64,000 nt of DNA from a virus (Duplodnaviria; Caudoviricetes). Shown piece by piece: positions 13,310 to 50,306 of this stretch. Under the pieces are notes generated by a model. It saw only the letters and a list, made by a program, of their open reading frames with translations. It did not search any database and was not told the origin of the DNA. The position numbers and the translations under genes are program-made. Each line of letters begins with the position of its first letter. Positions within the stretch are counted from its first letter, which is position 1. The stretch is taken from IMG/VR virus record IMGVR_UViG_3300022752_000063, positions 1,939 through 65,938 of that record; one strand, 5' to 3'.

Positions 13310-13367
13310 TCAAATCATCTCTTATAAAAAGAGTGGATTGCCAAGGGGATTCTGTTACCATCAGGTG

Positions 13368-15065: not shown

Positions 15066-15090
15066 CCGTTCTCATCTAATTGAGTATCTA
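15062..15090 (+). promoter_or_regulatory. Promoter-like element before the portal gene
   Basis: TTGACC-N17-TATCTA, then AGGAG and GTG. Confidence 0.55.
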
Positions 15091-15100
15091 GGAGTTCAAC

Positions 15101-17377: not shown

Positions 17378-17401
17378 TCTGGTTCGGCGATACACGTATC
17401 A

Positions 17402-17683
17402 ATGACATTCCAAGAATGGAGTAAGCGGGACGATTACGTAGAGCTTTGGAAAAAAACCTGGAACGAGCCCCACATGCGGGCTGGCCTCACAGCTTTGATT
17501 CATCTTGGATTACCCCAACTAAACACCATCGCTCCCGCCAATGGTGAGGCTATTCAGCTTCGAGCAATCGCTCATTCTCGCAACGAAGGATGGTTTGCCG
17601 CTTTAAAAGCTATTGATCTTCTCAAGACTCCCAAGACTGAGCCGCAGGAGCTGCCAGCACCTTGGGAAGACGTAAACCAATAA
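17402..17683 (+). CDS. Hypothetical head-module protein
   Basis: 93-aa ORF between the portal and scaffold genes. Confidence 0.75.
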   Translation: MTFQEWSKRDDYVELWKKTWNEPHMRAGLTALIHLGLPQLNTIAPANGEAIQLRAIAHSRNEGWFAALKAIDLLKTPKTEPQELPAPWEDVNQ

Positions 17684-17701
17684 ACAATAAAGATACAAAC
17701 T

Positions 17702-27999: not shown

Positions 28000-30543
28000 A
28001 TGGCTATAGCTGACACCACGTTACTCCTTGAGGGACAACGTGATTTTTCGGGTGGAATGGATTCAAGTAAGGTCCCAAATCTCATCGCCCAAAATGCAGT
28101 TTCACGTGCGGTCAACGTGACTTTTCGTGGGGGTACTCCGGTAACTCGGCCTGGGTTTAAACAATTGATATTGGCAAGTGCTACAACCAACGCCAACGAC
28201 GGTTTGGAATATTTTGTTAACGGGTTGTTTCAAGGATGTTATTTTTATCAGGACCGACGGGAGAACTATAGCCCCTGTTTATTTGCCGTAATGAGTGGTC
28301 ATGTGATCAAAATAAATTTGGGGTCGTACGAAGTTCAAAGAATATTCCCTATTGTCGGAGCTACTAACATTATCCAAGGTCAACAATATCAAATCCTCAC
28401 CGTAGGTACTACCAATTGGACAACTTATGGTGCGTCTTCAAATACTGTTGGTGTTATTTTTACCAGCAACACTACAACTGGTGCAGGTTCCGGAACAGCA
28501 TATGCAAGAGATCCTATCGATCGCTACGCAGATTGCTATTTTGTACAAGCAGAAAATTTTTTAATAATTCAAGATGGAACCAGTCTCCCGAGAATTTGGG
28601 ATGGGGACAATCTGTGGATTTCGACAAAAGGTCCCCGTATATCTTACGGCAATGTAACAAATTCGATTGGTGCTATTTCTGAGGTTCCAATCGGGACTGT
28701 GATGGCGTACGGACAAGGAAGATTATTCGTCTCCAATACAGAGCGAACTTCCGGAACGGCTGGTGATTTAGCTTATGGCGGGAGTACCGGTCAAGTTTCA
28801 ATTGCGTCAGGGGCAGGTGTTTCTGGGGCAGCCACCTATTTAATCACCACCTCGACAAACCATGGCTATTCCACCGGTGATTTTGTTACTATTTCAGGAC
28901 ATTCTTCAAGTAATGGCGTTAACGGAACTTGGAAAATAACTGTTATGTCCCCAACTACATTTAACATAGCGGCTGCAAGTCCTAGTGCTGCCACTTCCGG
29001 AACAGGTGGGTATGTGGCTAAAGCGAATGCTGGGGCGGCGTCAGATCTTCTTCGATTTACGGAAACAACCTATTTGGATGAAGGTGGCTCTCTACAAGTT
29101 CCTGGGTTCTTGGGAAAAATTACTGGCATGATTTTTATGCCAGTTCAGGATTCTGGAGCTGGCCAAGGGGATCTTTTGGTGTTCTGTGAGACTGGCGTTA
29201 TTTCTTTGTCGGTAGCTGTGCCTAGATCAGAATGGAAAAATACAGCCGGATTTCAGCGTATTGCCTTGGCTTCGATTGGGTCCACTGGTCAAGAGTCTTT
29301 GACTACGGCCAATGGTGACGTGTTTTTCAGGTCCTTTGACGGACTTCGTACTTACCGGAATGCCAGAGCCGAGTTTAACTCTTTCGGGCGGGTTCCTATC
29401 TCTGCGGAAATGAATGGTGTTTTAAACTACGACACAAAAAGCATGTTGAAGAATTGTAGCGCAATTGTGTTTGATAATCGTTTTCTTTTCACCGCCACAC
29501 CACAAATTTCCTATAAAAATGTGCCAATCTCACAGTTGACAAAAAGACCCATCACATTTTCCACTATCGTCGCCCTTGATTTCACTACCTTGGCTTCGGT
29601 GGGGGCCCAACGGGCTTCGTGTTATGACGGTATGTGGAAGGGATTGGATGTGACAAAATTGGTCACGGGAGTTGTGCAAGGAAAACCAAGGGCCTTTGCT
29701 TTTTGTGTTGATTATAATGTCAACGCCACCAACACAGTTTGGGAATTATCTCCAGACAACTACGAGGATCAGCCCGTAAATTCAGATGCGGTCCCAATCA
29801 CATCTATTTTGGAAACACGCAGTTTTCAACTTGGCTCACCCGCTGAAATAAAAAAACTTATCCGAGCAGATCTTTGGCTTGGGTCTTTACGTGGCACCAC
29901 CAACTTCAAGGTTTATTGGAGACCGGATGAGTACGCTTGCTGGAGAGAGTGGCATGAATTTTCCAGATGCGCCACGGTCGACAATTGCGTCGAGACTGGC
30001 GTCGGCACGGAATACAACGCAGCTTCCAGCACAGTAACAATCGGATTTTATACTTCAACAATTAAGTGGTATCGTATTTCTGTGGCAAATCCAGGAGGTT
30101 CTCTCTACACGGAACCTTTAAAATTTATGAATTCCGACAATGCAATTGCCGATTGCACGGCAATTGCGAGCGCTCTTACTGACGCTGGTATAACTTTTTC
30201 AACGGTAACTCGTTCCGGGACATACCCAGTGATAGCCTACACCATTACCGGCGCCGGCAGTGATTTTACGATCATCCCAGTCAGAACCCCTTCGGTAAGT
30301 GGTATCGGTGATTGCGAAGATATGTTTGCCCCTAAAAATCTCCAACCACAATATCGTCCGCAAATTCGTATGCCAACACCTCCCGAAACAGCGGACCCTA
30401 TTGTTGGGAGACCTTACTATTTCGGGAATGATTTTCAGTTCCGGATTGAGTGGACTGGGCATGCCCAACTTACACGTTTTCTTGTCCTCGGTCAGCGACA
30501 ACTTGAGCAGTATCAAGGGACTGATTATGTGGAGGTTGTCTAA
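28000..30543 (+). CDS. Tail nozzle / packaged-DNA stabilisation protein (tubular protein B-like)
   Basis: 847 aa; starts DFSGGM...N..FRGG; beta-propeller-like; inserted beta modules (ITTSTNHGYSTGDFVTISG). Confidence 0.7.
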   Translation: MAIADTTLLLEGQRDFSGGMDSSKVPNLIAQNAVSRAVNVTFRGGTPVTRPGFKQLILASATTNANDGLEYFVNGLFQGCYFYQDRRENYSPCLFAVMSGHVIKINLGSYEVQRIFPIVGATNIIQGQQYQILTVGTTNWTTYGASSNTVGVIFTSNTTTGAGSGTAYARDPIDRYADCYFVQAENFLIIQDGTSLPRIWDGDNLWISTKGPRISYGNVTNSIGAISEVPIGTVMAYGQGRLFVSNTERTSGTAGDLAYGGSTGQVSIASGAGVSGAATYLITTSTNHGYSTGDFVTISGHSSSNGVNGTWKITVMSPTTFNIAAASPSAATSGTGGYVAKANAGAASDLLRFTETTYLDEGGSLQVPGFLGKITGMIFMPVQDSGAGQGDLLVFCETGVISLSVAVPRSEWKNTAGFQRIALASIGSTGQESLTTANGDVFFRSFDGLRTYRNARAEFNSFGRVPISAEMNGVLNYDTKSMLKNCSAIVFDNRFLFTATPQISYKNVPISQLTKRPITFSTIVALDFTTLASVGAQRASCYDGMWKGLDVTKLVTGVVQGKPRAFAFCVDYNVNATNTVWELSPDNYEDQPVNSDAVPITSILETRSFQLGSPAEIKKLIRADLWLGSLRGTTNFKVYWRPDEYACWREWHEFSRCATVDNCVETGVGTEYNAASSTVTIGFYTSTIKWYRISVANPGGSLYTEPLKFMNSDNAIADCTAIASALTDAGITFSTVTRSGTYPVIAYTITGAGSDFTIIPVRTPSVSGIGDCEDMFAPKNLQPQYRPQIRMPTPPETADPIVGRPYYFGNDFQFRIEWTGHAQLTRFLVLGQRQLEQYQGTDYVEVV

Positions 30544-35130: not shown

Positions 35131-36450
35131 ATGGCCATTACCCTAGCAGAAGCCAAGGCTACGCTTTCTGTATACGTCGACAACGGCGTCTACCAAGATG
35201 ACACTCGCGTCATCGCCCGCATTAACGAGGCGCAGAGACGCCTCTATGCGGTTCGTTCTTGGCTTGGGGTGCTGGCTAAATATTCCCTTCCAGTAAACGC
35301 CGGGATATTTACCCTCCCCGATTCAACAGGAGATATCTCGACTTTTGCCGGGTTTGGGCTCAGCACAATCCTGCGAGTCACCTCGACCAACATGCCTAAT
35401 GGTTTCCTTACAAACGGAGAGCAAGCTTTCTTATCCAACAGCGAGAGTTTAGTGAAGGTCAATAAACCGGCAAGCTCCGCCGATTATCGGTCGTACCAAG
35501 TTTCTGGGATCAATCCGCTTCCCTCTTCGGTTGAGGTTACTGGCAAGTTAAACTTTGTTCCAGCCGCCGGTAGCACCGATCTGTTGATTATTCAAGACTT
35601 GGATGCCCTTCGCCTTATGCTCCTTGCCCTTTGGAGGGAACAGAATGGACAACTTGATTTGGCTCAAGTATTTGAACAAAAAGCGGTCGAGCGTTTGGCT
35701 TTGGTCACAGATAAAACTTTGGAGGGCGCACGAAGATTAAACTATCAATCCCTTGTGTCGTCCACCGTCGAAGGTACAATTGGTTGGGTTAGGGCCCGTA
35801 TGGCCTTGGACCTAAAGGATGGGTTAATCACTGATGATTCTGTTTTGTTCCATCTTATCGACAAAGCCGAAGAATATCTTTTGACTAGGGGGTCTTGGTA
35901 CGGGTCTATTCGGCAGTTTGATGTCGAGGTTCCAGCCAGCGGAGAGATGTATCTTCCGCATGATATTGAGTCTATTTTGTTTTGTTCTTTCAACTCTGAG
36001 CGGGTGGATTTGTTTGCTCGCGAATACGACTTCCATGAAAACGGTCCTGGGTACCGGACTGTTGAAAATACTGGGGGGTTGTTGGTTGTGGATCGTGGGG
36101 AAGAGGCGGTTTTTGACGCCAATTATGGGGGTCTGGTGGCTAAACGAAAAATATTCGTCAATCGCCCGACTAACCCGGAAGACCCTTGTATTCTGACTAT
36201 TTTGGGGTCCGTTCGCTGGTCGGCCAAAACCCAAGATTCTGACCCTATGATTGTTGGTAATTACCCAGCTTTGTTGGAAATGGTTACCGCTTTCATGCAA
36301 ACCGAGAAACCCGATTTCTACACTTTCCACGAGCAAAAGGCCATTCAACTTTTGCGGGATGAGCTTCAGCAGAAGCGTGGCGGAAACAGATTGAGCATGC
36401 AAGTTCAGGGTACGGCGTGGGCTATGGGGGAAATTGGAAATATCCGGTAA
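35131..36450 (+). CDS. Head-tail adaptor (tubular protein A-like), internally duplicated
   Basis: Two homologous halves (RINEAQRRL...SW.G and LIDKAEEYL...SW.G; EQKA..L in both). Confidence 0.6.
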   Translation: MAITLAEAKATLSVYVDNGVYQDDTRVIARINEAQRRLYAVRSWLGVLAKYSLPVNAGIFTLPDSTGDISTFAGFGLSTILRVTSTNMPNGFLTNGEQAFLSNSESLVKVNKPASSADYRSYQVSGINPLPSSVEVTGKLNFVPAAGSTDLLIIQDLDALRLMLLALWREQNGQLDLAQVFEQKAVERLALVTDKTLEGARRLNYQSLVSSTVEGTIGWVRARMALDLKDGLITDDSVLFHLIDKAEEYLLTRGSWYGSIRQFDVEVPASGEMYLPHDIESILFCSFNSERVDLFAREYDFHENGPGYRTVENTGGLLVVDRGEEAVFDANYGGLVAKRKIFVNRPTNPEDPCILTILGSVRWSAKTQDSDPMIVGNYPALLEMVTAFMQTEKPDFYTFHEQKAIQLLRDELQQKRGGNRLSMQVQGTAWAMGEIGNIR

Positions 36451-36872
36451 CGCAACCAATTATTGACGAATGGCTTAAAATGAAAGATATCAATGGTCAA
36501 GTGACAACCTACGTCGAAAAGAAAATCCCCTTCTATCGGCATTGGAACCGCAAGGATTTGAAGGACATGATTAAGTTCTTTGCCGACTTGGGCCAGTTGA
36601 TTATTCACCAAAACAATAAGGGGAAGATTGACGGGGTATTGGCGTTGCAATTTGTGGACAAACCGGAAGACATTTACAGTTGGGAGAATGACTTTAATGG
36701 AAAAGGCGTGGCGGTTGTTGTCTTGGCATCCGAAGACAAGTCAGTACGTACTGAACTGGTCCGTAATGGAATGGCTCTTTCGGGTATGCGTAATTGGGTT
36801 TGTTTCCAAGGCGCTAAGTATAATCAACGTATGCGAGTTCTTCCTTGGGCTTTAGCGGAGAGGATGGCCTAA
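36417..36872 (+). CDS. Hypothetical protein (position of T7 gp13-like gene)
   Basis: 151-aa ORF between the tail and ejection genes; start uncertain. Confidence 0.65.
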   Translation: MGYGGNWKYPVTQPIIDEWLKMKDINGQVTTYVEKKIPFYRHWNRKDLKDMIKFFADLGQLIIHQNNKGKIDGVLALQFVDKPEDIYSWENDFNGKGVAVVVLASEDKSVRTELVRNGMALSGMRNWVCFQGAKYNQRMRVLPWALAERMA

Positions 36873-36873
36873 T

Positions 36874-37827
36874 ATGGGAAGTAAGAAACCACCTAAACCG
36901 CCACAGTTAGTAGCACCCAGACAAGTGCCACTTTCCGAAACATTTGGCACGTTCTTAGGGCAAAAGGAACAATTGCCCGATTTATTTGGTTTTGCAAGAA
37001 CATTAAATTTGGGTTTTAGGACAGAGTTAGAAACAGGACTTCCGGGAACTCTTGGCGCAGCACAGCAAACGACAAATTTGGTGAATCAATTGCTGTCTGG
37101 AACCCCTTCAGCGGACGTCCAAGCACAAGCCCAGCGACAATTAGCTGAACGAAATATGGCGGCAGGTTTGCCAGCTACCAGCCAAGCGGCAATTTTTGGT
37201 GAAGCGGCGTCGTATGGAAAAACATCGATGGACCTGCAAACTCAAGGCATGTCTGCCATCCCCGGGCTCTTGCAGATGTCCGAGTACTTAAGCCCGCAAC
37301 AGGCGCAAAATTATTTATTTTCCACGGGGCAGTTGCGGGGAGAACAGCTAAAAGCTGCTCAGGATGAGGCAAACATTGCGAATCAAAACGCAATGAACAA
37401 ATATAACTACGACGTGCAACAATCCCAGAGCCGTGGCGGTCTTGGCGGTACCATTGGCGGAATCCTCGGGGCAGTTGGCGGGTCATTCATTATGCCAGGA
37501 GTCGGAACCGCAATCGGAGGAATGCTTGGGTCTGGTATCGGAAGCGCTATTGGGGGTGGCGGATTTGCCCCAGGAGCTGGACAAGCTGGCGGACTTATCG
37601 CTCCGCTCGGACAGATGGCTTCTTCTTTTGTCGGCGGTGGGTTGATGGGTGGTGGCGGTGGTGCTTTGGGTATGCCGGGTATGAACTTAACTGGTTCTTC
37701 CACTCCTTCTTTCAATAGTCCGTTTTTTGGGAATGCCTCGAATCCGTTAAACAATTTCCTGAGTCCTTCAAACATGGGATCTTACGGAGGTCAATATCCG
37801 CTCTCTGTTGGCGGTATTAAGTTCTAA
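36874..37827 (+). CDS. Internal virion/ejection protein, Gly-rich
   Basis: MGSKKPP start; glycine-zipper GG..GG.LG repeats. Confidence 0.7.
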   Translation: MGSKKPPKPPQLVAPRQVPLSETFGTFLGQKEQLPDLFGFARTLNLGFRTELETGLPGTLGAAQQTTNLVNQLLSGTPSADVQAQAQRQLAERNMAAGLPATSQAAIFGEAASYGKTSMDLQTQGMSAIPGLLQMSEYLSPQQAQNYLFSTGQLRGEQLKAAQDEANIANQNAMNKYNYDVQQSQSRGGLGGTIGGILGAVGGSFIMPGVGTAIGGMLGSGIGSAIGGGGFAPGAGQAGGLIAPLGQMASSFVGGGLMGGGGGALGMPGMNLTGSSTPSFNSPFFGNASNPLNNFLSPSNMGSYGGQYPLSVGGIKF

Positions 37828-37828
37828 T

Positions 37829-39529
37829 ATGGCACAGGCTTATCAACTTCCGGGAGAATTCAGGGGTATCGACATGAGCGCGGCGGCGGCGGTAGCTGGC
37901 AACCAGACCGCCCGTGATCAGGAATCGATGAATAATTTCATCCGTCAATGGGATGCCACGACCAACATATTAAACGCCAACCGAATGCAGTCCCTGCGTG
38001 AACGCCAGTTCGCACAGGAGATGATCAATGCCGACCGTAATTTCCAACTCGCCAAAGACCAGCAGGAATACAACTTCCAAGCCGGACAGCGTGACTTTGA
38101 TTTAAAGAAAGAGTATCAGCAAGCTCAACTACGTAACTTTGATCTAAATGCCCAACAAGCTCAATGGGCTTTGCAAATTCAGAAAGAAACCTACAACAAC
38201 TCCCAAGAGGCTTTGCAGTTGGCCCCTTCATGGAAGGAAGAACTGGACCGCAGACTTGGACCCCAAGGTGCTTATGGGCCTAACGCTGAAAACGTCATGG
38301 CTGATTTTGTTTTGGAGAAGGGAATCAATCCCGGGTACAAGGCAGTTCTGGACCAGATGTTAATCCAGTATCGCCAAAGGGCTCAGAACTACCAAGAGAA
38401 TGTTTTTAATAAAACAATCGCCCAAGCTAAAACTTTACTTGGTACCGGTGAACTTGGGAATTTAAAGTTTACAGATCCGAATCTTCCAGAAGACGTCGGT
38501 CCTGTTTCTGGGAACTTTATTTTAGGCCAGCTAAAACAGGCCATGGCCCAAGGAAACATAGACGATATGCTGATGTATCAAGGAATGTTGCGGTCTGGAT
38601 TTGCGGACCTCGAGAAAGATAAGGCTCGTCGCCTACAGGAAGAGGCTACTATCAGGGCATCCAAGCTTGGCATACCGGTTGAGCAGGTTGATGTGAAGGG
38701 TGGTGAGATGAGCGTTCGATTCGAGACGCCTAAACTTGGGAGGGGTACCGGAACCGGTGCTGGTGGAACGGGTGGTACGGCACAAGAACGTGCGTACACC
38801 GAAACCAATATCACCGCAGTTAAGAACGCTGAAATTAACATGGATGCCGCCAAGCAAGCGTTTACCGCAGCTGATGAGGCGTTGAAAGATATTGATAAAA
38901 ATACCGCTGAATATCAACTCAAGGCTCAAGACAGGGATGAAGCCTACAATAAGTACCAGAATTGGAAAGCAATTTACGAGGATTCCGCAAGGAGGATGAG
39001 CCAACAACCCGATATCACCACGGGAAATAAACCTCAACCTAGTGCCACAACTCCTGCTCCTGCTAAAGAACAGACTGTTCCTTCGGGTGCCCCCAGCATC
39101 AAGGACATTCTCTCTGGTTCTGAGCAGGAGAAGGCAAAAGCTTCCCAGATTTCCCCTGTGACAACTCCCGATATAGCCAAAGAACTACTGAGCCCAACAG
39201 CACAAAGGCTGGAACGTGGGCTACAGGCAGCCGAAACGGTTGGTGGCATGGGTCTCGCAGTTGGAAAGGGATTAGCCAAAACTTTGGCCCCTCTACCAGC
39301 TCCTGTCCGGGCTGCTCAATTCGTATCTGAGGTGGCTCCTATGGTTGAAAGTGTGTCCAAGGATGTGAAACAACTAGCCGAAGTCCGTAGGCTTCGAGCC
39401 AAGGCTCAACTTGCGGCAAATGCTCGGGCAGCCAAGGGGGAAAACCCGACAAAAGCGTATCAAGAAGAGCTTGAAAAGGTTGTTGCAGACTACCGAGCCA
39501 AGAACCAACCCACTATTTCCGTAAGATAA
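37829..39529 (+). CDS. Internal virion/ejection protein
   Basis: Q/A-rich helical protein preceding the giant gene. Confidence 0.7.
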   Translation: MAQAYQLPGEFRGIDMSAAAAVAGNQTARDQESMNNFIRQWDATTNILNANRMQSLRERQFAQEMINADRNFQLAKDQQEYNFQAGQRDFDLKKEYQQAQLRNFDLNAQQAQWALQIQKETYNNSQEALQLAPSWKEELDRRLGPQGAYGPNAENVMADFVLEKGINPGYKAVLDQMLIQYRQRAQNYQENVFNKTIAQAKTLLGTGELGNLKFTDPNLPEDVGPVSGNFILGQLKQAMAQGNIDDMLMYQGMLRSGFADLEKDKARRLQEEATIRASKLGIPVEQVDVKGGEMSVRFETPKLGRGTGTGAGGTGGTAQERAYTETNITAVKNAEINMDAAKQAFTAADEALKDIDKNTAEYQLKAQDRDEAYNKYQNWKAIYEDSARRMSQQPDITTGNKPQPSATTPAPAKEQTVPSGAPSIKDILSGSEQEKAKASQISPVTTPDIAKELLSPTAQRLERGLQAAETVGGMGLAVGKGLAKTLAPLPAPVRAAQFVSEVAPMVESVSKDVKQLAEVRRLRAKAQLAANARAAKGENPTKAYQEELEKVVADYRAKNQPTISVR

Positions 39530-39567: not shown

Positions 39568-42500
39568 ATGGCCGAGATACCCGAAGATATCCTGCAAAAT
39601 CCATTTGGAACGCAGGATCAGGGTACGGTTGACCTACAACAAGCCGACTTATTCAAGCAAGCGGCGGAGTATACCCCAGAACCAGTCGTTGAGGAAGCCC
39701 CTCAAGAACAAGGGTTTAAGACATGGAATGACTACAAGGCAGACCCTGACTTTGAGAAGCTGGATCAAGGTCAAAAACAGCAGTTGTTTGACCAATGGAA
39801 ACAATACTCCTTACAGCATCTCACCGAAATTGGTGCACTTAACACCGAGGATGATGCTAAAACGGCTGACGAATTCTTCTCCTCTATCGCCGATCAGGAA
39901 AAGCTAAAGAAATTTAGGACACAAGCCCCCACCTACGCAGAACAACTAATTGAACAGGGTCAGTCTGGGTTAAACTCCTTGCAGTCAGGAGTTGTTGGGT
40001 ACGGTGCCGCAATTGGTGCGGCTGATCCGGCAAAAGCCGCTGAACTTATCGCAACGAATAACTTAAAAACGCAGAGCCGATATGTAAGCCCTGAGATGAG
40101 GGAATACGGTTCTAAGAATCAAGGATTCTTTGAAGCCGCAAAAGATATTGTTACCAACCCTATCGACATTATGTTGCCAATGTTTGCCCAAAGCATTGGA
40201 TCAAATCTTCCCGCCATGGGTGCTTCGTTGGCTGCCGGCGGTGCGGCAACGGCTATCGGGACTCCAGCCGCAGGTGTGGCCGTTGGCTTGGGCACAAGTG
40301 CCGTATTGGGTGGCGTGACTGATACATTGGTCAGCTTTGACCAGTTGGTAAACGACGAGGTTCAGAAACGTGGATTAGATCCCTTGGACCCTAAGGCAAT
40401 TCAATCGGTCTTGGAAGACTCAGACTTTCAAAAGCAAGCCGTTGCCTACACGACGGCACGTGGGGTTGTCATTACCGGTACTGAATTGGGGGCTTTGGGC
40501 TTGGGTAAACTGATTGCCGCTCCCGCTGAAACAATCGCAAAGGCTGGGGTTGGAGGGTTAGCAAAAGAATTTGCGAAACAAGCCCCTGTTCAAGTCGTTA
40601 TGGAGGGAGTCGGAGAAACTGGAGCTCAAGTGGCTGGGAAAGTGGCAACAGGTGAAAAAATAAATGTAGATGCCAAACAAGTCGCTGAAGAAATTTTTGC
40701 TGGATTGCCAATGGCTGGTCTGGAAGGTGTGGGGGTCGCATATCATAGCCTGTTGGTAAACGATTCCCCCATGACAGCGGACGAAGTTCTCAGACAAAAG
40801 GTTGACGACTATAAGGCTGGGAAGTATTCTAAAATCCTCGGGCAAGAAGCTACGAACGATAATATTGAGAAGTTTTATAATGGGCTTACGATTGGGGAGA
40901 AGGCAAAAATTTTGGGCATTGAGGGAGAGAATGCAGTTCTAACAGGGGAACAGAATTTATTTAACACCCTGACACCAGAGGAAAAGACTAGAGCGACAGA
41001 AGCTTTTAAGGCTGGTCAATTAGAATTACTAAACCAACAGGCTCAAACTCCGATAAGTAAAGCAGAAGTTGCAACTGCTCCAGGTGCCGTTCCTCCGGTA
41101 CTCGAGCCACCAGTATTAAAAACCCAAGCTCCCGAATCTCCCGCTCCTGCTCCTACTCCAGCCCCAGCCCCGGCGGTTGCTGAAACACCTGCCCCACAAA
41201 CTCAAGCACCGGCTCCCGTTGCTGAAGCTCCTGCTCCTACCCTCGCACCGGAAACTCCTATTTCAACACCAGCAGAACCGTTGCCCGTAACTCCTGAGGC
41301 CAAAGCTACACTAGCGAAAACAGCACCAGCAACCGCCCAAGTCGTGAAAGCGGAAGAGGCTAAAGCTCCTGTCATTCCTACTCCACCTCCAATAACGCCG
41401 GCAACACAGCCTTTTGTAAGAGCCAAACCAATACGCACCCTTCAAGACGACATTGAGTATTACCAGCAACGTCTTGACGATCTATCATTGTTGGATAAAG
41501 CGGTTACGGTTGGCGATAGGGTTTTTGTTCCTGTTGGGGGGAAAAGAAAAATTGGTTTGGGGGAAACCTACGAATCCCAAAATGATGCTCAAAATGCTTT
41601 GTCTAAAATTCAAGGTAAGCCGGGATTTGAGAATGCTCAGATTAAACCCCTTCGGAATAACCTGTTTGAAGTTATTTGGGGAGATCAATCAATCTTGGAT
41701 AGCTGGAACAAAATGTCTGAGGAACAGTCAAAATTATCAAGGGAAAAAAAGAACAAATTGCTTCCTGACAGATGGAGATTTTTAGGTGATGCCCTTGGGT
41801 ATAAACAATCAAAAATTGATGAATTTGTAGCTCAAGGACTCCCACCTCAACCCACCAAAAAAACACAAATTAAATCTACTACGGCAGTAAAGAAACTACC
41901 TCCGACAAAGAAGCAAGCCCAAGCTCTTGCGAAGTTAGGGTATTTACCAGCGGACATTGAGGGGCTAGATAGAACTCAGGCAAAGGACATTCTCGCCAAT
42001 CAAATTGAAAAACAAAAAACCCAAGGTCTCGAAGCTCAAGCACCTGCCCCCGGACAGCCCGGAGTTGCACAAGCACAGCCAGCGGTTAGAGAAGCTGGTC
42101 AACCTGTGGCACCTACAGAGGGCGAACCAACCACCCAAGTCCCCGTCCAAGAGAGATTAGATAAAGCCAAAGCAGAACTAGAAGCCTTGGTCAAAAAGAT
42201 CGGGGCGGAACTTGGAGAGTTGGAATTGGATGCGGAATCGGTCTCGAGGTATTTTGGGGGCACACTCTCGCCCCAAAACGAACTTCAACTACGTGCTCTC
42301 CTTAACATCCTCAACCATGCACTTGCCAATGCCCAGCAAACATTGAAGGTGGCGGAGGGCAGGGGGAGGACAGACCTAAAGAAGACGTTCACTAATCTCA
42401 AGAAAGTTAAACTACGTAGGGAAGGTTACGGTGGTGGTGTGTACGCTAACCCCCGTGACGTGTTTAATTTGGATACTCTTTACGTTGACCCAGATCAACT

Positions 42501-45500
42501 GCTCAGAAGCTTTGCGAGCAGGGGAGTGTCCGATCCAGCCAGTTTCTTTGTTAAGGCTTTGTCCGAAGAAGTTCTCCACGCCAACCACGGGTTGGCCATG
42601 TATCAAGCTTTTCTTAAAACAAACCCAGCAGAAAAAACCCAAGAGGCTTTCCAAGCGTTTTACGACGCTCAGAACAAAGAGATTGAGAACAGCTTGTCCT
42701 TGGATCAGATTAAAGAGATCGTTGGCAAATACGCCCAAGCATTGGGCGTGACGTTCGAAGGCAAGACCAAAGAGCAGGTGATAGCGGAGTTTAACAAAGG
42801 CCGACCTGGTAGACTAGCTGAAGAATATCTCCGTGGTCTTATCCAGCAACGTCTAACTGGGAGCATTACGGAAGATACTCTCAAGGCGTTTGCCACTCGC
42901 CCGATCCTTCGTTCGTTAGGGACTTTGAGAAACTACTTCTCAAAACTGATTGGATTGGGGACTAAACGGGAAAGCCGTAAAACATATGTCGATAAATACT
43001 ACGACGCTATTGTCAGTCTGCTGACCAACAGCTCTCCTGCTGAAATACGTGCGGCCAGTGGGGAAAAGGGGACAGCAATACCGGGGAGCGAGTTGGCGTC
43101 CAGTATTGATCCGAATGCAATCCTTCAAGCTCAAGAGACTTCGGCTAACAAGAAAGCTTTGTATGATGAAGTTGCAAAAGAACTTGGCCCTAGAGATCCG
43201 GCGACGGGAGAAGGTGGATTGTGGAGGAGATCCGTTATCGGGGCTTTGAAGAAAGCTTTCCGCACAACCGACCCAGATGAGGTTGAGTCTCTTGTGTACG
43301 CTTCCATACCAGAAGCGGTGGAAACATTCAACGAAGAGTCTGGCACCAAGTTTTCCACATATCTGTTCCAAATTGCCAGACAGAAAATTTTAGAGGAAAA
43401 GGAAAAGATGGCACGGCGTCAAGCTGTAGAAGTCAGTCTACAAGCCCCAGGATTTGTCCCGACGTCTTCTGAAGAAGTACAAGCTGAGAAAGAGGCTGAA
43501 GCTATTCAGAGCACAAAAGAAGATTTAACCTTGGGACAACTTGAAGATCGAGTATCACCAGAAGTTGCGCCCAAGAATTTGGAAGAAGAGTTGAAGACAG
43601 TTGAGCAAAAGATTGACACGGGAATCGAGAAAGAAACCGCCCAAGAAATGGGGACTCTACCTACAAATATTGCGGATGAAGAACAAGAGATCGAGGAAGT
43701 TAACTTGGCTGACGGAGAACAGATTTCTTCCGTTGACGCCGAGATTGCAAATAAACGTACGGCTAGGATGGAGGCGGAACTTGGTGAAGCTGGAAAACTG
43801 TTGGCTAACGCGGCAAGGAAGCTTGGCCTTACCAAGATGGAAGTGGATATCCTTAACTTCACAGCCGACCCTAAATCCTCGCCTTTGACCCGAGCCCAGT
43901 TGAGCGACAAGTATGGGCTGAACAATATTGATTTTGATGAAATCCGTGACGATGTGATCCGCAAGATGCGGGAACAATTGGTGGCGGGCGGTGTGACTAA
44001 GACGGCTGACGTGTTGGCATCTTCTATAGATCCGAACGCCATATCAATCCCACAGGACGATGTCTTTGTTAAGAAGTATCAAACCTTGGCGAAACAACTG
44101 GATGAAAAGGGAATGAGCATTTTGGCTCCGGAAACCAATGGGTTTAACCGAGTATTCAAACAAGAAAAAGCAACTGACGCGATTAAGATTTTGGAGAGGG
44201 GCGGATTAAATGTGGAGAGGGCTTTAAATAGAATTGTAGATAACTATTTTGATGAAAACGGAAATAAACAATTTGCTTCTATTGACGAGGCAAGACCGAA
44301 AGAAAATGAACTATTCGGGGATTGGCTAAAGCGTTTGGATATTCAAGACTACGAATCTACTTTTGAGCCACGAGTCTACGATGATGAGTTTAATTTAATC
44401 GGAAAGAAACCGAATTTATTTGGATCTCTCGGTTTGAAGTATGATGTTAACTCACCGAGAGTAATAGAAATAATCCCGCCAGTAGCTACTAAAACAAATA
44501 TTCCTTTGGCATCCTCGATCGACCCGAACTACACCCAATCTTTAAACCGAGCCCTTCGAACCATGCCGGAAGATGTGGTCAAGGCATTGTCTGAACGCAC
44601 ATACATTCCTTTTGAAGACGAGGACTTGGTTGCCAAAGCCAACAAGTTTGTGGATGACAACTCACCTGGTGGGGATGTCATGCATGCCAAACGGATCTTG
44701 GATGGCGTCCAGAATATGCCGTTCCAAGACCGAGTCGTTACGCTGGGGGTTATCGGAAAGAGACTACGCAACGCTTTGTTCGCCCATGTTGCCCGCATGG
44801 AAGCCAAGGGAACCACTCCTGAAGGACAGGCTCTACGGCAGTACCTATCCAACAATCTTACCGAGGTCCTATCTCGGGCACAGGATCTTGGGACAAGAGC
44901 AGGACAAGACTTGCGGTCGTTGCGTACGCTGGCCTCGATGTTCCTGCCTTACGAAGTCGCCAAGCTTTATACCGGACCAATTTCTGAACAACAGAAATCA
45001 GCCTTGGCCCACAAGGAAGAAGTGACAAACCTATTGGCAGAGATTGAGAAGTTAAAGGCTACGATTGCTGGGTTGGCAATTGATGAAGCCGTAGGAAAAG
45101 TTTTACCTCCTTTAAAACCAGGTGGGGTTTCTTATGCCCCTCCAGCGGATAGTAATTTCTTTAAACTCTTGTCCGCATTTGGAGATTTGGCTCCCCTTGA
45201 GAACGAGACTTTTGAAGCGTACCTGCAACGCATTGGTATCCCGTACGACGAATTAATGTTGGCCTTGGAAGACTCCAGAGCCGCTGCTGTAGGACCAGAA
45301 GGTGTTGCCCCGGTCGACTTCAAGAAGCTATCCGCTTCCGAAGCCATCGAGAAGCTGTTGGCCAAGGACAAGAATCTATTCAGCAAGCTTGTGGCTCTCC
45401 GTCTCAAGACTAATAGGGGTTCCGAGACGGCTGTCGTCCAAGAGAACTTTACGAAACGTAAAGCTGATGCTCCCGCCCTCAAGCAACGTAACCAAGCCTT

Positions 45501-48495
45501 GCAGTTGGTATTTGATTTCTTCAACACAACCCAGAGCGAGAAGCCCTCGTCGCAAGAACCAGTTGAGACAGCCAAGGATAATCTTCCTCCGCTGGTTCGC
45601 TTGGCCAAGTATGCCTCGGACGTAATCACCGAGAGGGTTATCCGTTCTCTTGGTGTAACCAAGGAGAACATGCCAAAAGGGTCTTTCGAGAAGCTGGAGA
45701 ACCAAGTTCGCAAGATGGTGAACGCTCAGTTCAAACAAGAACTTGATCCCAAGAAGGCGGCAACGGAAGATACTCGGCCGGCGGAACAACGACTACTCGA
45801 CATGGTGCAGAGGATCAAGCTGGCGGAACAAGTATTCAACGAGGTGCAGACCAACCTCCAGGGCCAGCTCAATGAGGACAACCGAATCATTGACGCGGGT
45901 GCCGAAGGACGTCTTTCGCCCGAGCAACGTAAAAACCTGGAAGAACTGATAGCCAAGAAGTTTGATGCTGGCAAAGTAGCTGGCGTAGACGGCTTGCTTA
46001 AGAAGATAATTGATTTCAAAGCCGAAGCCCGCAAACACATGACCAAGCGTGGGGCAAGTCTGCAATCAATCTTGGCCTTAATCAAAGAGAAGTTGCCGGA
46101 GTTGTCCGAGCAACAGGCAAGCGATCTGGCTACTCAGATGGCGAAACGGTACGAAGAGATTGTTAAGAAGGACGGGCAACGCCAACTGGAGAATATCGTA
46201 AAGCGTGTTGGCGAGAGGGCTTCCAGAGACCCCAAGACCACAATGCAACAGCTCATGGAGTTGGTTAACCTTGGGGCTTTCGATGAAGAGAAATTTTATA
46301 ATGCCATCGCGGATCGCTTCAACCTGCCAACTTGGGACCCAGCGGTCGTCGAAAAGATCAAGGGTATTGCGGATCAAATGGAGAGAATGCCGGAAGGTTC
46401 CGATCAGAGAGCCACTAAAGGGGCGGAACTTCAAGCCTTCATTGCAGAAGAATTGCACAAGCAAGAGAAGGGTTGGGATGCGGTTGGGCGAAAGCTGGAT
46501 GTGGCAGCCGCTATTTGGAAAGCCGGTGTATTGTCCGGACCACCGACACAGTTGGTTAACTTGGGAGCCACTCATCTAAATGTGTTGTTTGAATTGTTGA
46601 CTGAAGCCCGAGCCTACTATAAGGCATCCAAAGCATTGGGTAAGAAGGCCACCTTCGGAGAGTTTTTCAACGATGCGCTCAACGCATACGTCCAAGCAGT
46701 CGGGAAGATGGGCGTCGAGCAAGCTAGCGACGCTTTCGCCACAGGGTTGTCCAGGTTTAGGAACGAAACCCAATCACAACTTTCACCGCTGGAGATGATG
46801 AAATTTGATACGACCAAGCCTTGGAATTATAAGAATTACCTTGCTTCTTGGAAGATCGTCGGTCGTGCCATGGCTGCGGCAGATACTTACAATTCCGTTA
46901 TTGCAAACGAAGCTAAGACCAGAATGGCCGCTAGGTATTCGATGATGAAGGATGGTCTGACTTCCCAACAGGCGACCAAGAAGATGGACGAATTGTTCAA
47001 TGCCTTCAGCCCTGGAATGAAAGCCATTGAAGAACAGGTCAATAAGGAAGAAGCGTCGGGACAGTTCGGAACATTGGCGGGTCTTAAACCTAACACCATG
47101 GAATACAATAGCCAGAAAAGAAAGATTGAAGCTGGAAGACGGCGTCGGTATTTGCAGTTGAGGGAACAATTCATCGCCAATGAAAGCAAGATTGGAAGCG
47201 AAGGTATAGCTAAGATCCGTAACTTCACGCAGAAAGCAACGTTCAACAATCAACCCACTGGTATGATTGGATACTTGGGTGAAGCCGTGATCGGACAGGT
47301 TGCTGGGAAAACCAAGCTTCTTACCCCGTTTGCCGCGTTCCCTCGGACGATTGCCAACATTATCAACTCCAGTTTGGACTACACCCCGTATGGTTGGGCG
47401 CGGGCAAACGGATTCTCATTGGGGAATCTCAGCCCATTCATCCGCAACTCTAGCTACGCTTTCGAAAAGCCGGAGAAGGGAAGCGTTGAGTACCACCAGC
47501 TACAAGCCAAAGCTTTCTTCGGCTCGCTCATCACCTTCTCGATTATTGGAATGGCTATGAAGGATATGGATAAGGATTGGGACGAAGCTTATTTTGCTGT
47601 GACTGGACGCGGACCTACAGACCCTAACAAACGTGAGCAACTTCGCCAATCAGGATGGACTGAGAACACGGTTAAGATCGGACCTCTGCGGTTTAAACAC
47701 ACCGACTTCCCCGGGTTGAACTTGGTATTCGGATCTCTCGCCTTGGTATCCGACCAATGGAGATACGGTAAACTATCTGAGAAAGACTTTGGGACTGTAG
47801 CTGCAACTGCTGCCCTCTCGGTAGGAAATACAATCCTAGATAAAAATTTGTTGTCTGGGGCCAAGGTATTGTTCGACGCGGTATCTGATGGCGGAGACCC
47901 TGGTGATAAAGCCAAGAGACTTCTTCAGAGCTATACCGGAGGGTATCTCAATCCGGGGATGGCGAGATGGTTGACCAAGACTTTGAACATTGGGCCGGAC
48001 GGAAAGGTCAAAGTGGTGGACTATAAGGAACTCAACTCGACCACGGGTGGTTGGTTGGTCGGTCAGACACCTTTGGCCGTGGTATTTGGCAAGCCTATGT
48101 TGAATCGCTTGGGCGAGGAGATCAGGGATTATCCTTGGACCGCCACGTCCAAACGTCTCGGGTTCCTGCCCGAAGTTAAAGAACACCCCGTGTTTACCCC
48201 GCTTATCAAAGCTGGGTTGTTTGTCCCTGGGGTTAGCATTAATTCAAAGATTAAAGATTTTAAAGGTGGAAAGATGGAACAGAGGAAGATGACTCGCGAG
48301 GAGTACTACGATTATTCCAAGTACGATGGCGAGTATCTCAAGCGAATCCTCACGCCATCCATGGCTAAAGCGTTGGCGACGCAAGCAATCCGAGACCAAG
48401 CGGGGGCCCAAAAAAGACTGGAAAACTTGGCCCAACAGTCCAAGAACTACGCTATTACTCGGATCGAAGCGCAGATCCGGTCAGCGAAAAAATAA
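39568..48495 (+). CDS. Giant internal virion (polyvalent) protein, 2975 aa, with zincin-like and sigma70-like domains
   Basis: Uninterrupted ORF at the last ejection-protein position; EEVLH...LAEEYL zincin-like segment; AVETFNEESGTKFSTY sigma region 2-like motif; region 4-like HTH; three LASSIDPN repeats. Confidence 0.85.
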   Translation: MAEIPEDILQNPFGTQDQGTVDLQQADLFKQAAEYTPEPVVEEAPQEQGFKTWNDYKADPDFEKLDQGQKQQLFDQWKQYSLQHLTEIGALNTEDDAKTADEFFSSIADQEKLKKFRTQAPTYAEQLIEQGQSGLNSLQSGVVGYGAAIGAADPAKAAELIATNNLKTQSRYVSPEMREYGSKNQGFFEAAKDIVTNPIDIMLPMFAQSIGSNLPAMGASLAAGGAATAIGTPAAGVAVGLGTSAVLGGVTDTLVSFDQLVNDEVQKRGLDPLDPKAIQSVLEDSDFQKQAVAYTTARGVVITGTELGALGLGKLIAAPAETIAKAGVGGLAKEFAKQAPVQVVMEGVGETGAQVAGKVATGEKINVDAKQVAEEIFAGLPMAGLEGVGVAYHSLLVNDSPMTADEVLRQKVDDYKAGKYSKILGQEATNDNIEKFYNGLTIGEKAKILGIEGENAVLTGEQNLFNTLTPEEKTRATEAFKAGQLELLNQQAQTPISKAEVATAPGAVPPVLEPPVLKTQAPESPAPAPTPAPAPAVAETPAPQTQAPAPVAEAPAPTLAPETPISTPAEPLPVTPEAKATLAKTAPATAQVVKAEEAKAPVIPTPPPITPATQPFVRAKPIRTLQDDIEYYQQRLDDLSLLDKAVTVGDRVFVPVGGKRKIGLGETYESQNDAQNALSKIQGKPGFENAQIKPLRNNLFEVIWGDQSILDSWNKMSEEQSKLSREKKNKLLPDRWRFLGDALGYKQSKIDEFVAQGLPPQPTKKTQIKSTTAVKKLPPTKKQAQALAKLGYLPADIEGLDRTQAKDILANQIEKQKTQGLEAQAPAPGQPGVAQAQPAVREAGQPVAPTEGEPTTQVPVQERLDKAKAELEALVKKIGAELGELELDAESVSRYFGGTLSPQNELQLRALLNILNHALANAQQTLKVAEGRGRTDLKKTFTNLKKVKLRREGYGGGVYANPRDVFNLDTLYVDPDQLLRSFASRGVSDPASFFVKALSEEVLHANHGLAMYQAFLKTNPAEKTQEAFQAFYDAQNKEIENSLSLDQIKEIVGKYAQALGVTFEGKTKEQVIAEFNKGRPGRLAEEYLRGLIQQRLTGSITEDTLKAFATRPILRSLGTLRNYFSKLIGLGTKRESRKTYVDKYYDAIVSLLTNSSPAEIRAASGEKGTAIPGSELASSIDPNAILQAQETSANKKALYDEVAKELGPRDPATGEGGLWRRSVIGALKKAFRTTDPDEVESLVYASIPEAVETFNEESGTKFSTYLFQIARQKILEEKEKMARRQAVEVSLQAPGFVPTSSEEVQAEKEAEAIQSTKEDLTLGQLEDRVSPEVAPKNLEEELKTVEQKIDTGIEKETAQEMGTLPTNIADEEQEIEEVNLADGEQISSVDAEIANKRTARMEAELGEAGKLLANAARKLGLTKMEVDILNFTADPKSSPLTRAQLSDKYGLNNIDFDEIRDDVIRKMREQLVAGGVTKTADVLASSIDPNAISIPQDDVFVKKYQTLAKQLDEKGMSILAPETNGFNRVFKQEKATDAIKILERGGLNVERALNRIVDNYFDENGNKQFASIDEARPKENELFGDWLKRLDIQDYESTFEPRVYDDEFNLIGKKPNLFGSLGLKYDVNSPRVIEIIPPVATKTNIPLASSIDPNYTQSLNRALRTMPEDVVKALSERTYIPFEDEDLVAKANKFVDDNSPGGDVMHAKRILDGVQNMPFQDRVVTLGVIGKRLRNALFAHVARMEAKGTTPEGQALRQYLSNNLTEVLSRAQDLGTRAGQDLRSLRTLASMFLPYEVAKLYTGPISEQQKSALAHKEEVTNLLAEIEKLKATIAGLAIDEAVGKVLPPLKPGGVSYAPPADSNFFKLLSAFGDLAPLENETFEAYLQRIGIPYDELMLALEDSRAAAVGPEGVAPVDFKKLSASEAIEKLLAKDKNLFSKLVALRLKTNRGSETAVVQENFTKRKADAPALKQRNQALQLVFDFFNTTQSEKPSSQEPVETAKDNLPPLVRLAKYASDVITERVIRSLGVTKENMPKGSFEKLENQVRKMVNAQFKQELDPKKAATEDTRPAEQRLLDMVQRIKLAEQVFNEVQTNLQGQLNEDNRIIDAGAEGRLSPEQRKNLEELIAKKFDAGKVAGVDGLLKKIIDFKAEARKHMTKRGASLQSILALIKEKLPELSEQQASDLATQMAKRYEEIVKKDGQRQLENIVKRVGERASRDPKTTMQQLMELVNLGAFDEEKFYNAIADRFNLPTWDPAVVEKIKGIADQMERMPEGSDQRATKGAELQAFIAEELHKQEKGWDAVGRKLDVAAAIWKAGVLSGPPTQLVNLGATHLNVLFELLTEARAYYKASKALGKKATFGEFFNDALNAYVQAVGKMGVEQASDAFATGLSRFRNETQSQLSPLEMMKFDTTKPWNYKNYLASWKIVGRAMAAADTYNSVIANEAKTRMAARYSMMKDGLTSQQATKKMDELFNAFSPGMKAIEEQVNKEEASGQFGTLAGLKPNTMEYNSQKRKIEAGRRRRYLQLREQFIANESKIGSEGIAKIRNFTQKATFNNQPTGMIGYLGEAVIGQVAGKTKLLTPFAAFPRTIANIINSSLDYTPYGWARANGFSLGNLSPFIRNSSYAFEKPEKGSVEYHQLQAKAFFGSLITFSIIGMAMKDMDKDWDEAYFAVTGRGPTDPNKREQLRQSGWTENTVKIGPLRFKHTDFPGLNLVFGSLALVSDQWRYGKLSEKDFGTVAATAALSVGNTILDKNLLSGAKVLFDAVSDGGDPGDKAKRLLQSYTGGYLNPGMARWLTKTLNIGPDGKVKVVDYKELNSTTGGWLVGQTPLAVVFGKPMLNRLGEEIRDYPWTATSKRLGFLPEVKEHPVFTPLIKAGLFVPGVSINSKIKDFKGGKMEQRKMTREEYYDYSKYDGEYLKRILTPSMAKALATQAIRDQAGAQKRLENLAQQSKNYAITRIEAQIRSAKK

Positions 48496-49283: not shown

Positions 49284-50306
49284 ATGGCAGATTCATTTGT
49301 TGACGCGGTAAACAAGAAGGCTTCCGGTGGGAATGCCATTGTGCCAGAGGCTTTGGATTTGGTGAAGACTTTTGAGTCTTTCAAGCCAACGTCCTACTAT
49401 GATATTGATAATAAGAAGAAACGTGGAACGCTCACCGTGGGTTATGGATTTACGAAGCATGATATCCCAGAGATCCGGGAAGGGTATTCAATTGACAAGG
49501 CGACGGCCGAAAAAATGTTGCCAGACCTGATCAAGAACAAATACGCCACGGCAGTCAAAGAAAAGGTAAAGGTTCCGCTGAACGACCAACAATATAGCGC
49601 ATTGTCCAGCTTTGCTTACAACGTGGGGCCAACCAATTTCTCTTCGAGCACCTTGTTGAAGAAGCTAAACTCCGGCGATTACGAGGGGGCGGCAAATGAA
49701 TTTAAAAGGTGGAACAAAGCGGATGGGCAAACTCTAGAAGGACTTACCCGAAGACGGGCGGCAGAGGAAGCTTTGTTTAAAGGGGATGTGATGGGTCTTG
49801 GGTCTATCCTAGAGAAACAAAAGTTTGGTGGTGTCCAACCAAAGAAGAAAGGCGGAATGGCTGACGTTGGAGATTCTTTTATAAACTCCATGAGTCAATC
49901 CGATTTGGCTAAGGCAGTAAGTGCTCCAATCGGAGCTGGGGGAAGCCCAGATAATCCGCCAGTTCCAATAACGTCTGAGGCATTAACCCCCCTACCAGAT
50001 TCTCCGGAAGAAACCGGAGCTAAAGCTGCTGAACAAGTTGCCAAGAATATGGAAACTCCTGAAGAGGCGGGAAAAACAGCGGCAGAAAAGATTGCCAAAA
50101 ATGTTGAAGATAAAAAAGACCAACCAGATATGAGTTTGGCAAAAGCTTTTGAAGATTTGGCTAAAGGTTTTACACAGGAAGGATCACAAGAAAAAACTCA
50201 GGCTAAAGAGGAGAAACCTATTATGAAAAACGTAACGTTTAACACTCCGGTAACAGGTGTTATTCAATCGGGTCTTCGCCGACGTTCCGGATTGGGGGCT
50301 AGGTAA
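49284..50306 (+). CDS. GH24 (T4-type) lysozyme with long disordered C-terminal extension
   Basis: FE......Y.D......T.GYG.T catalytic triad; AL.SFAYNVG; RWNKA.G..L.GL.RRR..E. Confidence 0.9.
   Translation: MADSFVDAVNKKASGGNAIVPEALDLVKTFESFKPTSYYDIDNKKKRGTLTVGYGFTKHDIPEIREGYSIDKATAEKMLPDLIKNKYATAVKEKVKVPLNDQQYSALSSFAYNVGPTNFSSSTLLKKLNSGDYEGAANEFKRWNKADGQTLEGLTRRRAAEEALFKGDVMGLGSILEKQKFGGVQPKKKGGMADVGDSFINSMSQSDLAKAVSAPIGAGGSPDNPPVPITSEALTPLPDSPEETGAKAAEQVAKNMETPEEAGKTAAEKIAKNVEDKKDQPDMSLAKAFEDLAKGFTQEGSQEKTQAKEEKPIMKNVTFNTPVTGVIQSGLRRRSGLGAR

Follow-up and report, generated by a model that had tools for sequence, protein, structure and literature searches.

The octapeptide LASSIDPN occurs three times in a giant open reading frame (ORF) of a tailed phage (Caudoviricetes), each time at a border between protein modules, and comparison with relatives indicates a junction motif common to the whole family, L-small-small-S-hydrophobic with D-P following in most cases, of which LASSIDPN is the local version. 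The phage is IMG/VR virus record IMGVR_UViG_3300022752_000063, of which 64,000 of the 65,938 bases were analyzed (hereafter the window; record completeness 93% by CheckV). The ORF encodes a multidomain, polyvalent-type protein of 2975 amino acid residues (aa), in which an N-terminal region and a first cargo slot are followed by domain A and a sigma-like module, and these in turn by a second cargo slot that leads to an internal-virion core (Table 1). Judged from the alignment of the family, every module downstream of domain A has the motif at its N-terminal border.

Conservation of the junction peptide

The initial annotation of this DNA had reported three LASSIDPN copies with synonymous differences, the peptide rather than the DNA being conserved, and had taken copies 1 and 2 to bracket a sigma-like domain exactly and copies 2 and 3 to bracket an unknown domain of 164 aa. 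All of these statements held. The copies lie in the giant ORF at spacings of 307 aa (copies 1-2) and 164 aa (copies 2-3); between copies 1 and 2 the model shows two helical domains whose best matches in the PDB are sigma factors, with the copies at the low-confidence ends of the model, and between copies 2 and 3 is a stretch of 156 aa (cargo A) that belongs to no Pfam family. Between pairs of the three spellings of 24 nucleotides (nt) there are 6, 7, and 4 differences, every one synonymous and none non-synonymous; one serine has the codon AGT in a single copy but TCT or TCG in the other two, so that both serine codon families are used. Motif copies in 13 other loci have yet other codon spellings. 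Because all nucleotide differences are synonymous and the spellings vary between loci, the junction peptide is, by this codon comparison, maintained by selection that acts at the level of the protein rather than of the DNA.

When the protein sequence was shuffled 2000 times, no shuffle contained any 8-mer three times (0/2000) and 5 contained one twice. Together with the conservation of the motif at homologous borders in relatives down to 43-55% overall identity, this makes chance or low complexity a negligible explanation of the repeat. Six-frame searches of the window with SSIDP, ASS[ILV]DP, L[AGS]SS[ILV][DE]P, and SIDPN gave nothing beyond the three LASSIDPN sites.

Relatives were collected by a word-indexed search with aa 1100-1760, which returned 27 other proteins of 1768-3941 aa, all metagenomic, and by an exhaustive scan for aa 850-1183 among 1.84 billion representatives, which gave 11 proteins in all and 10 representatives further to the 27 relatives. 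Because the latter scan gave 11 proteins only, the family of giant proteins is small. DNA of the relatives was compared at 22 loci, and 38 non-redundant proteins were aligned. Across this alignment the motif stands at the same three or four columns, and a loose form of the pattern matches the relatives of 2000-4000 aa almost solely at these few borders. Site 1 separates the conserved domain A from the sigma-like module, and site 2 closes that module. Site 3 opens the conserved C-terminal core; its L1647, S1650, and D1652 are invariant in 27 aligned sequences. Site 4, found in one clade, lies about 255 aa into the C-terminal core and is degenerate in the window, where RAAAVGP is the positional homolog of a canonical ITASVDP site in the second of the motif dialects described below. 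The pattern [AST][AS]S[ILV]DP was found 23 times in giant ORFs and 2 times elsewhere in 185,862 aa of open frames from the window and 10 loci, and both outside matches are one and the same antisense stretch; within these frames the motif is private to this giant-protein family. In the most distant relative, P0038 (2048 aa, domain A 31% identical), we noticed by eye the motif-like stretches FLNSFDPS, LASQYDPN, and VGSPDPD after domain A, which itself keeps EEALHVQDG. The S-x-D-P core may extend beyond the family sampled here.

The motif exists in three dialects. Dialect I, [L/Y/M]-A-[S/A/T]-S-[I/V/T/A]-[D/E]-P, is used by the clade of the window protein and several others. Dialect II, [L/I/F]-[S/T]-[A/G]-S-[V/I/L/T/F]-D-P, is used by P0026, P0034-36, L006, L007, L015, L022, L019, and L020, and there the fourth site is canonical too. 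Dialect III, [L/F]-A-[S/A]-[S/T]-[L/V/I]-x-[L/I], is used by P0027-29, P0031, L003, and L004, which have lost D-P at all three sites (for example LASTLTL, LASSVSL/LAASIEL, and LASSIDI). Position 3 of the motif is uniform in 33 of the 36 proteins with at least two canonical sites, a level reached by 0 of 10,000 shuffles, in which kinship is uncorrected. Copies within a dialect II protein also differ at synonymous positions; therefore, recent gene conversion does not explain the uniformity. That the sites change together suggests one common reader.

Dialect III also bears on the idea that the protein cleaves itself at the Asp-Pro bond without a protease, either because this bond is acid-labile or through a calcium-triggered self-processing module such as is known from FrpC-type proteins. 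Although D-P is present in two of the three dialects, dialect III lacks it at all three sites while keeping L-small-small-S/T-hydrophobic, and the modules that follow the motif are mutually unrelated and thus offer no common self-processing fold. We regard this mechanism as extremely unlikely.

Table 1. The giant ORF with its modules and junction sites, in window coordinates
Feature	Position (nt)	Strand	Residues (aa)	Remarks
Giant ORF	39568-48495	+	2975 in total	Multidomain (polyvalent-type) protein
First variable slot	41245-41892	+	~560-775	Flanked by Pro/Ala-rich linkers; no motif
DUF6302 in first slot	41449-41694	+	628-709	PF19819, E 1.1e-8, 35.7 bits (cut-off 27.2)
Domain A	42115-43092	+	850-1175	Candidate zincin-like peptidase; directly upstream of copy 1
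EExxH motif	42565-42591	+		E1000-E1001-x-x-H1004-x-x-[H/D]-G; invariant
LASSIDPN copy 1	43093-43116	+	1176-1183	Junction from domain A to sigma-like module
Sigma-70-family-like module	43117-44013	+	1184-1482	N-terminal helical domain, acidic disordered linker, C-terminal helical domain
LASSIDPN copy 2	44014-44037	+	1483-1490	End of sigma-like module, start of cargo
Cargo A	44038-44505	+	156 in total	Between copies 2 and 3; no assigned function
LASSIDPN copy 3	44506-44529	+	1647-1654	Start of conserved C-terminal core
Conserved C-terminal core	44530-48492	+	1655-2975	
Degenerate fourth site	45277-45297	+	1904-1910	RAAAVGP

Modules bordered by the motif

The module between copies 1 and 2 is sigma-like in its predicted fold. 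Pfam Sigma70_r2 (PF04542) matched aa 1237-1280 with an expectation value (E) of 1.3e-4 and 22.1 bits, below its cut-off of 24, and the family profile matched WhiG at E 0.039 only, the other PDB sequences returned being a carboxypeptidase B chain (E 0.099) and lysostaphin (E 0.45). We built an AlphaFold2 model of aa 1170-1495 from 13 sequences; its mean predicted local distance difference test score (pLDDT) was 60.4, with 80-90 in the first domain and 70-80 in the last. A Foldseek search of this model against the PDB gave 3 matches at E <= 0.001, the best being 4xlp_F (E 2.4e-4, prob 0.99), and the rows listed were sigma factors in RNA polymerase complexes or models of them; the TM-scores of these matches are low because the linker is disordered. 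Both flanking motif copies fall in segments with pLDDT below 50 (model residues 1-10 and 309-326), and in a separate model of domain A, copy 1 lies in coil with D-P beginning a helix, at a point where the block pLDDT drops from 78 to 53. The sites that flank the sigma-like module are probably located in poorly modeled, flexible linkers.

The module after copy 3 suggests a link of the protein to the virion. A PHROGs scan of the whole 2975-aa protein found no family at E <= 0.01, whereas the C-terminal 831 aa (46000-48492), searched alone, matched phrog_6651, "internal virion protein," through core residues 2585-2791 (nt 47320-47940) at E 1.2e-11, so that long multidomain proteins of this kind need to be scanned in pieces. 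In GenBank, a relative was found in a single phage, a 40-kb podovirus record; its 1121-aa protein has the same core without cargo or motif, matches phrog_6651 at E 2.1e-24, and is encoded directly before the endolysin gene. Because the core matches phrog_6651 and this podovirus relative carries the same core before an endolysin gene, the giant protein is probably an internal, ejected virion protein that has been extended by modules.

Cargo exchange between sites 2 and 3

What separates site 2 from site 3 varies from phage to phage. Among the 32 sequences scored (L001 and P0004 are the same protein and were counted twice), 14 have no insert and 18 have inserts of 163-1266 aa. Insert-free proteins hold one fused motif copy. 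Of the other aligned sequences, L008, L012, L013, and P0019 also show a single fused copy, and two fragments leave the region uncovered. The inserts belong to eight families with no detectable similarity among them. Families A (the window and P0003), B (P0004/L001, P0016, and P0020), C (P0006 and P0025), and F (L007 and L015) are unassigned in content, and family G comprises the insert of P0026 (1266 aa) and, in part, those of P0034 and P0036. Family D (P0008, P0027, L003, and L006) has 338-373 aa with an HELIH motif, family E (P0021, L004, and P0031) matches ART-PolyVal in Pfam at E 1.5e-15, and family H (L022 and P0035) matches RNA_pol_A_CTD (PF03118) at E 2.6e-6 with 27.5 bits, above the cut-off. 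The cargo with the alpha-CTD-like domain lies at L022:6013-7101 and that with ART-PolyVal at L004:9963-10685. The combination of alpha-CTD-like and ART-PolyVal cargo with a sigma-like module suggests an array aimed at host transcription. Cargo A of the window has its sole known relative in P0003 (87% identical); it matched no Pfam family, its best atlas score of 0.76 was within the range of shuffled proteins, and a word-indexed search limited to proteins of 85-273 aa found none at E <= 0.01.

Cargo has moved from one diverged backbone to another. P0004 and P0020 share 77% identity in cargo B and 50-52% in the modules that flank it; for L004 and P0021 the values are 72% in cargo E and 28-48% in the flanks. 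Conversely, the window protein shares flanks that are 81-93% identical with P0004, P0006, and P0008, whose cargo is unrelated. The sigma-like module is itself mosaic, being 65% identical between P0004 and P0016 in surroundings of 93-96%. In their DNA, L001, which carries cargo B, and L009, which carries none, are identical at 88 of 90 nt on each flank and differ by the motif plus the cargo; the single motif copy of L009 is spelled nearer to site 3 of L001 (22/24) than to site 2 (18/24). The initial annotation had offered, as one reading of the motifs, that they are junctions for swapping cargo domains between related phages. The alignment of 38 sequences, in which variable domains sit between conserved short repeats, the eight unrelated families, and the pairs whose cargo is more alike than their backbone all bear this out, and it is well supported by these comparisons that sites 2 and 3 enclose a cassette gained, lost, and exchanged between diverged phages.

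The same boundaries could in principle come from recombination alone, the repeat arising by homologous exchange at the DNA and being without a role in the protein. In keeping with such a joint, cassettes begin and end at the motif, and cargo-free proteins hold exactly one fused copy. However, the copies differ at 4-7 of 24 nt, synonymously and across both serine codon families, with spellings that vary between phages; this is too little identity for homologous recombination and points to selection on the amino acids. Moreover, site 1 and the conserved fourth position keep the motif though they are no insertion points. A pure recombination joint is therefore very improbable.

A first variable slot lies upstream of domain A. 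The window protein has a Pro/Ala-rich run at aa 525-558, and the slot is followed by a conserved KKLPPTKKQ..ALAKLGYLPADIEGLDR stretch. In the corresponding region of relatives (P0004-P0029), one to three other, unrelated tandem inserts were recognized by eye, and none of the eight motif-flanked cargo families was found in this slot.

Possible cleavage or docking at the junction peptide

The initial annotation had also taken the repeats for protease sites that release effector cassettes after packaging or injection; the cargo-swap part of its interpretation stood, and the protease-site part is kept here as a proposal, no known protease family having been detected in the genome. In our estimate, there is about an even chance that an endopeptidase reads the motif and cuts the polyprotein. 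The protein would be packaged in the virion and ejected with the DNA, one reader would recognize all motif sites, and an endopeptidase would cut the polyprotein either after packaging or after ejection, which would detach both the sigma-like factor and the cargo from their internal-virion scaffold. The site would at the same time set where cassettes insert or leave without loss of function, because it is the only sequence that every cassette must keep. We favor cleavage because a sigma-like factor and, in relatives, an ADP-ribosyltransferase and an alpha-CTD-like domain would plausibly act away from such a scaffold, because plain Pro/Ala linkers serve in this protein where spacing alone is needed, and because the architecture parallels MARTX toxins and head-internal proteins of giant phages, both of which are cut at short linker sites. 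The position of the motif in poorly modeled linkers, its confinement to this protein, the dialect shared among its sites, and a sigma-like module that would plausibly need to exit from the scaffold fit with release.

Domain A is a lead in the search for the cutter, a candidate rather than an identified protease. It is kept in every family member, ending about 10 residues before site 1, and its E-E-x-x-H-x-x-[H/D]-G motif is invariant in 13 of 13 aligned sequences and is present also in the distant P0038 and P0039. An AlphaFold2 model (pLDDT 78.6, predicted TM-score 0.78) consists, in order, of helices, three strands (97-100, 109-111, and 121-124), a short helix, the motif helix (141-169), and a further helix (176-193) that bears the invariant E189 and E191 of the model, equivalent to E1038 and E1040 of the protein. 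The arrangement typical of zincins, in which a three-stranded sheet leads to the motif helix and then to a Glu-bearing helix, is seen in this AlphaFold2 model only. A VIA-align comparison with 48,161 chains gave a zinc peptidase as the best match (1g12, Z 5.6, root-mean-square deviation 4.1 over 98 residues), and 16 of the first 30 rows, all with Z < 6, were zinc peptidases by title. If domain A is the protease, which we consider possible but doubtful, it would act first at its own C-terminal border, that is, at copy 1. That an unrecognized phage or host protease is the cutter seems to us unlikely.

Several observations weigh against cleavage or against domain A as its agent. The domain has EExxH in place of the canonical HExxH, the first His being replaced by Glu, and a Z score of 5.6 is within the range that VIA-align calls common. 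It has no Pfam match, Foldseek searches against the PDB and BFVD returned nothing at E <= 0.001 (the weak BFVD rows being mostly "large polyvalent protein-associated domain" and ART-PolyVal proteins), and hhalign found no similarity to the HELIH-containing cargo D of relatives (probability 0.7%). In the 65,938-bp record, Peptidase_S78, S77, ClpP, S49, MPTase-PolyVal, and C80 gave no match at E <= 10 (the Pfam profiles sought included PF04586, PF03420, PF00574, PF01343, and PF18818); Peptidase_S21 (PF00716) also gave none at E <= 10, a result that says little since its control gave no signal in any control genome either. A divergent protease may nevertheless be encoded, because most structural genes match no family. 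Dialect uniformity reflects very few evolutionary switches, the 1266-aa cargo of P0026 contains no internal motif site, and not every cargo would be released, given that the Pro/Ala linkers of the first slot carry no motif. The search for shorter proteins returned one match, a contig-truncated fragment, and no split-gene form. Cleavage products themselves are not visible from sequence. Finally, the available text of PMC5512222 reports that the N4 virion RNA polymerase, which is polyvalent and includes a peptidase domain, is packaged without being cut.

The last point and the lack of a recognizable protease in the genome favor a different function, in which the protein stays whole and the motif is an uncleaved recognition or docking peptide that a single partner binds at each module border. 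This partner could be a host factor, a chaperone for packaging or ejection, a portal or capsid-interior protein, or another part of the giant protein itself. Selection on the peptide, its position in linkers, its restriction to this protein, and the shared dialect fit such a peptide as well as they fit a cleavage site. On the other hand, the sigma-like factor would then have to work while tethered within an internal virion protein of 2975 aa, no partner has been identified, and Pro/Ala linkers act as spacers elsewhere in the same protein, so that the motif is more than a spacer. We hold this docking function to be a reasonable minority possibility and continue to prefer cleavage.

The form L-x-[A/S]↓S presumably resembles the assemblin or prohead-protease consensus and the site of cyanobacterial CtpA, an idea that we did not adopt.

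Genomic context

Tail-fiber genes precede the giant gene, and an endolysin gene (49284-50306) directly follows it. PHROGs and Pfam scans of the window recognized genes for a family-A DNA polymerase, a helicase, an exonuclease, an rIIA-like protein, tail-fiber proteins, and the endolysin. The rIIA-like gene of this 66-kb phage (58903-61155, minus strand) matched phrog_612 at E 4.6e-89. Among the neighboring structural genes, the same scans recognized no protease, portal, capsid, or terminase. The large genes of the late block (13197-18994, 22705-23928, 28000-30543, and 35131-39529, all on the plus strand) are mostly without a PHROG or Pfam family; since most large late genes match none, this phage lineage is very poorly covered by reference families. 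In the giant ORF itself, Pfam recognized only DUF6302 and the sub-threshold Sigma70_r2, and hydropathy analysis revealed three moderately hydrophobic windows only, all within aa 229-318.

Two further ORFs were observed upstream on the plus strand. One of 708 aa (18994-21120), which lies within the block of structural genes, has both DUF6492 (aa 306-431) and an FkbM-type methyltransferase domain (aa 539-689). The other, of 433 aa (21153-22454), resembles "virion structural protein" genes of the T4-like cyanophages S-RIM50, S-RIM12, S-WAM2, and S-RIM8, with 67-68% identity across about 90% of its length, and has matches in 178 phage records. This similarity suggests a cyanobacterial host or gene exchange with cyanomyoviruses.

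Significance and relation to known systems

The family offers an explicit, mutable site of 7-8 residues, three dialects and cargo-free forms as natural controls, and a nearby candidate protease with invariant residues, so that the idea of processing can be tested directly. Cutting at the sites would mean that a pre-made sigma-like factor is delivered together with the DNA, which would be an unusual way to take over the host early, and that the motif-flanked slot amounts to a catalog of injected effectors, most of unassigned function. Without cutting, the motif would still be a strongly selected border signal for cargo exchange that helps in reading and engineering such proteins.

In viral polyproteins such as those containing the alphavirus capsid protein or potyvirus HC-Pro, a cis-acting protease cuts first at its own C-terminus. 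The giant protein is similar in that its first site directly follows a candidate protease domain and recurs at later borders; it differs in that it belongs to a DNA phage, is the product of a single structural-operon gene, and has a protease that is only a candidate.

Head-internal and ejection proteins of T4 and of the phiKZ-like phage SPN3US, such as gp245, are cut at a short motif by the prohead protease; as described in the available part of the source, these packaged and ejected proteins include transcription machinery, and one protein may hold several sites (PMC10052503). A short repeated motif with several sites per protein is shared with the family described here. In contrast to these substrates, no such protease was detected in our searches of the record, and the motif is found in one protein and not in many head proteins. 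The sites here separate whole modules, whereas nearly all cuts identified in SPN3US remove N-terminal propeptides, as far as that part of the source goes (PMC10052503).

In MARTX toxins, conserved N- and C-terminal regions flank an effector array that varies among strains by gene exchange, and the effectors are released by autoprocessing at short inter-domain linker sites with leucine at P1, according to the available text of two reports (PMC2900308, PMC5218395). Conserved ends flanking swappable modules with short linker sites make the giant protein resemble a MARTX toxin in design without being a member of that group; unlike MARTX toxins, it has no Peptidase_C80 match (E <= 10) and no RTX repeats, is a phage virion protein, and uses a different motif. 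By analogy, we propose tentatively, as a possibility of fairly low probability, that it is a phage counterpart of MARTX, an ejected virion protein that would cut itself through the EExxH zincin-like domain and free a sigma factor together with a swappable anti-host effector, be it an ADP-ribosyltransferase, a mimic of the alpha-CTD, or a domain of unassigned function, with the site dialect and the specificity of the protease co-evolving as a code private to each lineage.

In its general kind, the giant protein stands with the polyvalent proteins of phages and conjugative elements (Iyer, Burroughs, Anand, de Souza, Aravind 2017, PMC5512222), which are predicted to be delivered with the DNA and for which processing by an embedded zincin-like peptidase has been proposed. 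The zincin-like core outlined in the available text of that paper has the order of elements seen in the domain A model, and one phage-type version carries an Asp three residues after the motif (PMC5512222). The giant protein is likewise a very large multidomain phage protein with swappable enzymatic or nucleic-acid-related domains, combining DUF6302, domain A, the sigma-like module, cargo A, and the internal-virion core in 2975 aa, and its relatives L004, P0021, P0029, and P0031 carry ART-PolyVal in the motif-flanked slot. Unlike typical members, the window protein has no Pfam PolyVal or LPD domain and no PF18818 match, LPD38 being an atlas lead only (score 0.95), and it has a discrete junction peptide with lineage-specific dialects, an EExxH candidate peptidase, and a sigma-like module. 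The available text of PMC5512222 describes no recognition or cleavage motif at domain borders, and the word "linker" has 0 occurrences in it; in our literature searches, the string LASSIDP was absent and no description of such a junction peptide was found. The protein is best called a kin of the phage polyvalent proteins, in which the new element is a repeated junction peptide at the borders of the modules.

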